Made by a program: the position numbers and the translations under genes. Positions 16,331-17,353 of a stretch of DNA of 57,078 nt are shown piece by piece; position 1 is the stretch's first letter; every line of letters begins with the position of its first letter. The DNA is taken from positions 1 through 57,078 of the forward strand of contig CAYSVN010000001.1 of assembly GCA_964434585.1 (NCBI GenBank), read 5' to 3'. Origin of the DNA: an uncultured Candidatus Peribacteria bacterium (GTDB lineage Bacteria; Patescibacteriota; Gracilibacteria; Peribacterales; Peribacteraceae). The notes beneath the pieces were generated by a model. That model ran no database searches, was not told where the DNA came from, and saw nothing but the letters and a program-made list of their open reading frames with translations.

Positions 16331-17353
16331 GTGAACCAATCAGAAGCACAGCATCGAGCTCAAACCTTACGCCAAGAAATTTGGCGGCTTAATAAAGCGT
16401 ATTTTATGGAAGATAGAAACGAGGTAAGCGAAGATGTGCGCGATAGCCTAAAACAAGAACTAATTGCGATTGAGACAGAATTTCCAGAGCTGATTACCAT
16501 AGATTCACCAACACAACGCGTAGGTGTTCCACTTAGCGGAAAATTGCCTAAAATAAAACATTTAAGCCCGCGAGAGTCATTGCAGGATGCGTTTAATCAG
16601 CAAGAATTGGCTGACTGGCTCGAAACCATGGAGCGTTCACTAGGGAGTAAGCCAGAGTGGGAATTTATTGCAGAAGAAAAAATTGATGGGCTGAATATTA
16701 CGCTGGTGTACGAAAAAGTTGCAGACGTTCAAGAGGTGGCAGAGGTGTCAGAAGGGTCTCAGTTAGAACAAACTTCTGAAACCTCTGCAGCTCCTGCAAT
16801 TTTTTACACCCTCCTCCGCGCTGTAACCCGTGGTGATGGTAAAGAAGGGGAAGATGTAACCCATAGTATTAAAACAATTCAATCCATTCCACTAAGGCTA
16901 GAAATTACTGGTGAAGCACCACAATTTATTGAGTTATCTGGCGAGGTGTATATGCCTAAGTCGGTCCTTAAAAAAATAAATCTTGGGCTAGAAGCTAAGC
17001 ATCAATTTGCAAATCCAAGAAATGCCGCTGCTGGCTCTGTTCGTCAGTTAGACCCAGCTATTGCTGCCAGTAGAAAATTAGAAATGTTTTTTTACACACT
17101 AGATACCCAAACAAAGCAGCAGCAAAATATAAACAAGCAGTCAGAATCACTAGAGTGGATGAAGCAACATGGCTTGCCAGTAAATTTAAACTATCAAGTC
17201 CATCACGATTTACAATCAGTCGAAAAGCAGTACCAAGACCTACAAACTAAGCGTGATAATCTAGAATACGATATTGATGGTTTAGTGGTGAAATTAAATG
17301 ATATTACATTACAAAAAAATCTAGGTTCAACCGCCAAAGCACCAAGGTGGTAG
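16331..17353 (+). CDS. ligA: NAD-dependent DNA ligase LigA, N-terminal part, terminated by an in-frame TAG
   Basis: Ia domain plus adenylation domain with EEKIDGL (KxDG) and DIDGLVVK. Ends ...TAKAPRW* just before motif V. Confidence 0.9.
16718..16800. repeat. R3: GTTGCAGAGGT-word palindromic element inserted in frame within ligA
   Basis: GTTGCAGACGTTCAAGAGGTGGCAGAGGTGTCAGAAGG...CTTCTGAAACCTCTGCAGCTCCTGCAAT. Left arm ~85% identical to R5. Encodes [28 protein letters not shown]. Confidence 0.7.

Follow-up and report, generated by a model that had tools for sequence, protein, structure and literature searches.

How did a palindromic repeat come to lie, in frame, inside the gene of an essential enzyme, and is it tolerated there? 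We addressed this question for the DNA ligase gene ligA of an uncultured Candidatus Peribacteria bacterium (Patescibacteriota; Gracilibacteria; Peribacterales; Peribacteraceae), whose genome we place in the Peregrinibacteria. The stretch of DNA analysed, hereafter the window, comprises 57,078 nt of contig CAYSVN010000001.1 (GCA_964434585.1; positions 1-57,078, forward strand). The complete assembly (G000) amounts to 1.185 Mb (~1.19 Mb) in 92 contigs and is 96% complete.

A palindrome in the reading frame of ligA

Two open reading frames of the forward strand, 16331-17350 and the next in-frame ORF, which extends to 18529, jointly encode an NAD+-dependent DNA ligase. The gene is thus not one uninterrupted reading frame, as a TAG codon occupies positions 17351-17353. 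When this codon is read through, the product matches PF01653 (2.3e-79), PF03120 (9e-33), PF03119, PF12826 and PF00533, corresponding to the adenylation domain, OB fold, zinc finger, HhH and BRCT domains of the full LigA set. The AlphaFold2 (AF2) model of this product has a mean pLDDT of 82, and its top Foldseek matches are LigA structures (2owo, E = 3e-51). Furthermore, profile searches of the whole genome yielded one PF01653 locus and no PF01068 ligase. The ~190 columns that are invariant in an alignment of 61 LigA sequences are all retained here, on both sides of the insert and of the TAG. The features of the gene that concern the insertion are as follows.

16331..18529, + strand: ligA (NAD+-dependent DNA ligase), the sole ligase gene of the assembly, with a frame continuous but for one TAG
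16679..16690, + strand: motif I, KIDG (K117, the adenylated lysine; K117, I118, D119 and G120 invariant), from the orthologue alignment
16705..16810, + strand: full hairpin including native flanks (fold of 16705-16812, -46.2 kcal/mol, z = -5.39)
16714..16759, + strand: left arm, words GTTGCAGAC GTTCAAGAG GTGGCAGAG GTGTCAGAA GG, nhmmer E = 7.3e-7, 29.6 bits
16718..16804, + strand: inserted non-homologous segment, V130-F158, 29 codons, from orthologue alignments, alignment breaks and AF2
16770..16803, - strand: right arm, complement of the word array (...ACCTCTGCAGCTCCTGCAA), pairing with the left arm, nhmmer E = 1.5e-3, 19.3 bits
16826..16840, + strand: motif Ia, TRGDG (T166-G170), from the orthologue alignment

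An earlier note on this DNA had placed a palindromic element inside ligA shortly after the KxDG motif (EEKIDGL), read in frame, and both the sequence and its translation proved to be as it described. K117 of EEKIDGL is the AAA codon at 16679-16681, and codon 130 begins at 16718, 13 residues downstream of this lysine. The insert is translated as residues 130-157 (28 residues) of ORF 16331-17350, upstream of TRGDG (166-170). The stretch lacking homology is slightly longer than first noted (16718-16800), spanning 87 nt and 29 codons with F158 included. The encoded peptide of 28-29 residues is acidic and rich in Ser and Thr.

At the nucleotide level, positions 16705-16812 form one long hairpin, and none of 200 dinucleotide shuffles folded as well. 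Native flanking sequence lengthens its stem through the pairs GAAAAA/TTTTTT and GGTGTA/TACACC, the native codons that take part being GAA-AAA (E-K) before the insert and TAC (Y159) after it. The full stem reaches ~40 bp and is followed by U6.

The element belongs to a lineage-specific repeat family

To define the family, we trained a profile HMM on 106 arms taken from 53 intergenic copies; intragenic copies, that of ligA among them, were all excluded. A whole-genome search with this model returned 111 arms at E < 0.01, which form ~50 paired elements (median length, 112 nt); an earlier crude word search of the genome had given ~60 candidate copies. Each arm consists of 3-4 tandem 9-nt words with the consensus GTTGCAGAGGT..., and complete elements end in TAAAN-GTTGCAG...CTGCAAC-NTTTA. 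Their central loops are AT-rich, ~30 nt long and usually contain stop codons.

The ligA segment has this same architecture, with a pair of inverted arms composed of GTNNNAGAGGT-type words and the ends GTTGCAG...CTGCAAC, except that its right terminal word reads CTGCAA-T instead of the family's CTGCAAC. Both ligA arms were recovered by the HMM from which they had been left out (left, E = 7.3e-7; right, E = 1.5e-3). Membership of the family, which the earlier note had asserted, is therefore established beyond chance and without circularity. The same note had put the identity of the left arm to that of a second copy at ~85%, close to the 82% over 51 nt that we obtained against 42017-42067. The window contains four intergenic copies found with the arm HMM, listed here without strand.

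4859..4960: intergenic family copy in a divergent spacer
9620..9732: intergenic family copy in a divergent spacer
40900..41007: intergenic family copy
42017..42130: intergenic family copy in a convergent spacer, 3 nt from the stop codon of each gene; of the window copies, the one whose left arm most resembles that of the ligA copy

Intergenic copies occupy characteristic places throughout the genome. They adjoin the stop codon of the upstream gene (-1 to 3 nt), with the terminal TAAAN often constituting its TAA, and lie 45-60 nt upstream of start codons, divergent spacers included; 11 copies are located in divergent 5'-5' spacers. A search of the genome identified no transposase, target-site duplication or parent element for the family, the search for a parent being non-exhaustive. 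A degenerate arm pattern matched 90 times in this genome versus 0-5 times in each of 40 related genomes. By this comparison the family appears to be lineage-specific and absent from the 40 relatives.

Coding potential is not a general property of these elements. Left arms typically end in a TAA. Of the 50 copies, just 7 are free of stops in the ligA frame, and 20 have a stop in every one of the six frames. Since most copies are closed in this frame, the ligA case represents a rare tolerated accident rather than an element adapted to coding.

Could the segment instead have arisen in place, through slippage or duplication of 9-nt units in an acidic low-complexity loop, its likeness to the family being due to convergence? 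Slippage does act at this loop, since other genera carry short tandem repeats there (a 7-nt unit four times, a 14-nt unit twice, five 9-nt words). We nevertheless consider such an origin very improbable: slippage generates direct rather than inverted repeats, and the inserts of relatives are non-palindromic (z -0.5 to -1.2), whereas the ligA arms both fit the family model as an inverted pair, carry the terminal GTTGCAG/CTGCAA words, and include a left arm 82% identical to that of another copy.

Two further kinds of repeat were encountered. In some 9-nt-word elements the loop harbours a third palindrome (GTCCTGAGCGTAGCCGAAGG...CCTTCGGCTACGCTCAGGAC-like), which indicates repeat-in-repeat insertion, at the following positions of this assembly (G000).

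C4:4142-4285, C10:26323-26465 and C11:9936-10071: third palindrome nested in 9-nt-word copies
C26:11146-11274, C17:9951-10060 and C25:13366-13474: third palindrome nested in 9-nt-word copies

In addition, a second, unrelated family of ~90-165 nt, with 84-92% identity between copies, is present in the window at 16162-16317, 1-135, 34336-34465 and 36357-36529; the first of these copies ends ~14 nt before the ligA start codon. This family has no Rfam match, and an Rfam scan of the window returned two tRNAs only.

The insert occupies a hypervariable loop of LigA

Comparison with homologues delimits the insert from both sides. With phmmer (HMMER), residues 1-129 and 162-340 of the query align to 1-126 and 130-304 of 1b04, and the alignment to PF01653 splits between model positions 62 and 64. 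The breaks in these alignments to solved LigA and to PF01653 agree with the earlier statement that the insert has no counterpart there. The usual state among 19 genomes of the same family is a turn of 4-5 residues (e.g., YEKEEDG-RYTF). Among 121 Peregrinibacteria LigA sequences, the spacing from KxDG to TRGxG has its mode at 24-25 residues; the 49 residues observed here are the second longest.

In a LigA tree calculated with the loop excised, the LigA of the window falls into a clade (support 0.98) with P0001 and P0019, both with turns of 5 residues, and P0003, where 13 residues are found. With short turns in its nearest relatives, the long loop is the derived state. Alignment of orthologues, proposed in the earlier note as a check, thus points to a lineage-specific insertion, given the 5-residue turns within the 0.98 clade and a repeat family that the 40 relatives lack. 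The closest LigA homologue is 58% identical, and the databases contain no allele of this species or genus with an empty site; we therefore infer the insertion event from phylogeny rather than having seen it.

Structure prediction, another check proposed, indicates a disordered loop. In the AF2 model, insert residues 134-151 form coil at pLDDT <50, in a domain that is otherwise predicted with confidence. The insert lies between strands 121-129 and 156-166, with motif I where the first strand begins and motif Ia directly after the second. The model suggests that the insert replaces the distal tip of a ~9-residue beta-hairpin between the two motifs, and, judged from the strand lengths, this tip would be remote from the active site.

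Length variation at this position is widespread. Loops with at least 9 extra residues occur in 46 of the 121 LigA sequences, and at least 17 parsimony length changes are required. The loop between motifs I and Ia is thus a hypervariable hot spot across the Peregrinibacteria, which makes tolerance of the insert less surprising. In part, this revises the earlier note, which had described a palindrome tolerated inside an essential enzyme as unusual: the insertion itself is confirmed, the surprise is diminished by the variability of the loop, and a working enzyme can be presumed only, on account of the TAG discussed below.

The inserts of other lineages consist of various repeats. Arrays of a 7-nt unit repeated four times are found in genomes G004 and G003, a 14-nt unit in two copies in G018, and five tandem 9-nt words GACAGAAGN in the ligA loop of P0109, a distant member of the Peregrinibacteria (L026:10404-10444). 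The loop of P0114 contains a 44-residue segment whose DNA folds at -44.9 kcal/mol (z = -2.94) and has no match to the arm model. None of the inserts in G003, G004, G011, G018, P0109 and P0095 is palindromic (relatives' z, -0.5 to -1.2), and arm-model matches in the relatives' loops do not rise above noise (E = 2.4 at P0109). Same-site inserts of orthologues are hence unrelated sequences, and the homologous protein segment that would have contradicted a mobile origin was not encountered in them. Shared ancestry with the DV.EV.EG-like loops of P0109, P0095 and P0073 was also considered and ruled out, as these belong to a separate clade (support 0.97) and are non-palindromic.

Collectively, the hot spot suggests that repeat DNA has repeatedly been captured or expanded at the LigA loop. 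In G003, from a related genus (C59:4116-4147 and C30:15-46; L017), the ligA loop holds a 7-nt word array (CAGACTT); this word is also present at at least 12 other loci of that genome, and the ligA assembly breaks within the array. Separately, the P0109 contig carries an arm-model match (E = 4.7e-6) at L026:21077-21113, within a gene for a giant protein, and repeats of the 9-nt-word type may extend beyond the genome studied here.

These observations allow a broader reading, in which the word-repeat DNA of each Peregrinibacteria lineage repeatedly lands or expands at the tip between motifs I and Ia, lineage-specific repeat families are a general and ongoing source of new protein loops in the Candidate Phyla Radiation (CPR), and the intragenic hairpin, possibly together with the TAG, may throttle the sole ligase. 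The conjunction draws on the 9-nt-word palindromes here, the 9-nt words of P0109 and the genome-wide 7-nt words of G003; taken as a whole, we regard it as rather doubtful.

Intragenic copies elsewhere in the genome

The ligA element is not the only copy within a coding sequence. Three of the 50 paired elements are situated inside long ORFs (ligA, C12:17340-17426 and C46:7352-7450), and single-arm remnants occur in several further ORFs. The intragenic share is accordingly ~6-15%, based on 3 paired copies and ~5 remnants among roughly 55-60. At least five proteins besides LigA contain such copies, all read in one common frame (VAEV..., ...ETSxTS). By Pfam annotation, copies or remnants are located in the linker between DsbD-TM and AhpC domains, the C-terminal tail of NusA, the tail of L10 and the linker between SNase and LTD domains; another follows the lipoprotein signal peptide of a C39-like peptidase. 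The ligA copy is the sole intradomain one, the other intragenic copies lying between domains or in tails.

An in-frame TAG and the state of the ligase

The second anomaly of the gene lies 550 nt downstream of the insert.

17351..17353, + strand: in-frame TAG in place of an invariant Ala (PRW-A-RAYKFP), shortly ahead of the motif V lysine

The codon stands in the context CCAAGGTGG-TAG-CGTGCC and replaces an alanine that is invariant in all relatives. An assembly error is not apparent. A JGI contig of 5,052 nt from a separate assembly (L023), seen in two samples and found via a protein-cluster look-up, is 99.92% identical; its four differences from the window are all downstream of ligA. Because this contig carries both the palindrome insertion and the TAG of ligA, neither resembles a one-off assembly artefact. 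A search of metagenome contigs for the exact insertion junctions gave no matches.

The next in-frame start codon, GTG at 17393, lies past motif V, and an active enzyme therefore needs read-through. We searched for features that could account for it. No suppressor tRNA (tRNA-CUA) was found genome-wide, two PCRF release factors are present in the genome, and the sequence downstream of the TAG shows no read-through-promoting structure (z -0.1 to -1.4). Reassignment of TAG was rejected: ORF-length statistics gave no TAG-specific gain, and TAG terminates 220 of 907 long ORFs. Nine further TAGs between long open stretches proved to be ordinary adjacent genes and not recoding. ARAGORN additionally reported, over the whole genome, tRNA-Phe(AAA) and tRNA-Ile(UAU) beside the usual isoacceptors, and no tmRNA in the assembly.

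Two PDB entries, 9hu3 and 9i5i ("PR1 phage heterodimeric DNA ligase"), match the LigA model with chains of ~336 and ~247 residues and provide a precedent for a two-polypeptide enzyme of LigA fold; our literature search for this ligase found no paper. A simple split enzyme seems unlikely in the present case, because the TAG would sever motif V.

These findings bear on whether the gene is alive. If ligA were recently inactivated and decaying, the palindrome and the TAG would be two pseudogene lesions, and nothing would have been tolerated. A TAG that displaces an invariant Ala ahead of the motif V lysine, its reproduction in the JGI contig, and a genome with no suppressor tRNA, two release factors and no sign of genome-wide TAG reassignment are in keeping with such decay. 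Yet no other DNA ligase is encoded in this genome, which is 96% complete, and replication of a cellular genome depends on such an enzyme. The gene, moreover, shows no frameshift and no stop besides the TAG and retains all invariant columns of the 61 homologues, and the insertion preserves the frame in the most permissive loop. We accordingly judge a dead gene improbable, while acknowledging that ligA might be freshly inactivated, in which case the insert would not be truly tolerated. With a TAG in the only ligA, we infer rather than demonstrate that LigA works and tolerates its insert. The reproducible TAG in the only ligase gene also raises a separate question, that of nonsense read-through in a reduced genome.

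A probable passenger insertion rather than a co-opted hairpin

The insertion is probably best understood as a tolerated passenger, resembling the Rickettsia palindromic elements (RPEs), in which a non-autonomous hairpin repeat entered a permissive LigA loop. A hairpin-forming element that expanded only in this Peregrinibacteria lineage would have inserted into ligA at the distal turn of the beta-hairpin between nucleotidyltransferase motifs I (K117) and Ia (TRGDG). By chance, this copy would have been stop-free in the VAEV.../...ETSA frame; being stop-free and making up a replacing stretch of 87 nt (29 codons), it would preserve the frame and be translated. The product would be an acidic, Ser/Thr-rich, disordered surface loop of 28-29 residues in place of the native turn of 4-5 residues. 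Such an insert may persist as a neutral or slightly deleterious passenger, presumably with no function of its own in the enzyme, because the loop is structurally permissive.

The hairpin is well preserved for a coding region, which fits a recent insertion and also fits selection for the hairpin itself. It ranks fourth in per-nucleotide stability among the 50 family copies and is followed by U6; a terminator-like 5-bp sub-hairpin with ATTTTTT is present at 16786-16798, and the fixed places of intergenic copies near stops and 45-60 nt before starts hint at a function of the family. It might on these grounds have been co-opted as a cis-regulatory RNA or DNA structure (an attenuator, pause site, terminator or array of protein-binding words), with selection on the nucleic acid maintaining it. 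Termination within the sole ligase gene would do harm, however, and a terminator role makes no sense for 11 of the family copies, as these are in divergent 5'-5' spacers. The stability is equally explained by the youth and the shorter loop of the ligA copy, and the inserts of relatives at the same site are non-palindromic. Co-option consequently strikes us as quite improbable, and passenger insertion remains the reading that we carry into the comparison below.

Whatever its history, the insert marks one loop of LigA, an essential and drug-targeted enzyme, as exceptionally permissive. In protein engineering, tags or sensors could be placed in such a loop, which could also help in understanding the origin of new loops.

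Comparison with known repeat systems

The closest parallel is provided by the RPEs (Ogata et al. 2000, 2002), which are described in PMC10969869 as palindromic repeats located in frame in unrelated genes at fold-compatible positions. The same source mentions occasional in-frame intragenic copies of ERIC and BOX. Like RPEs, the elements studied here are palindromes of ~100-150 nt dispersed in a small genome without an associated transposase, and they occur in frame in unrelated housekeeping genes, where they are translated as extra peptide segments. The likeness is one of features, and the host differs, being a member of the Peregrinibacteria/CPR rather than the Alphaproteobacteria. In contrast to RPEs, each arm is built from 3-4 tandem 9-nt words, the intragenic share is ~6-15% as opposed to nearly half in some RPE families, and the consensus is not an open frame (7/50 copies open), with 3/50 paired copies intragenic. 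The ligA element consequently falls outside the RPE family in the strict sense.

REP/BIME elements with their RAYT transposases, and MITEs (Correia, ERIC, BOX, RUP), share with the present family a short, non-autonomous, hairpin-forming and mostly intergenic nature, with positions near gene ends. REPs differ in that the elements here are longer. A RAYT link was sought, and the genome contains two IS200/IS605-type Y1 genes, neither of them flanked by family copies.

C32:11310-11669: Y1_Tnp gene (PF01797), nearest family copy ~3.8 kb away on C32
C2:24781-25068: Y1_Tnp gene (PF01797), no family copy on C2

With respect to MITEs, the arms are inverted repeats and the conserved flanks are themselves inverted (TAAAN...NTTTA), with no direct target-site duplication seen. 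A widely spaced arm pair enclosing a transposase, as expected of a full-length parent IS, was not seen in a non-exhaustive search.

The loop inserts of other Peregrinibacteria LigA proteins offer a third comparison. They occupy the same turn, are hydrophilic and of low complexity, reach up to 44 residues (P0114) and contain repeated short DNA words; unlike the ligA palindrome, they are direct tandem arrays or unrelated sequence, with no family match above noise.

Our literature search returned no paper linking Peregrinibacteria with palindromic repeats in genes. The elements constitute a new, lineage-specific family, previously undescribed and with an unusual arm architecture of tandem 9-nt words, while the event in ligA is of a known kind in a phylum without an earlier description of it. 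Insertion of "selfish palindromes" into protein-coding genes, best documented in Rickettsia, is thereby extended to the Candidate Phyla Radiation.
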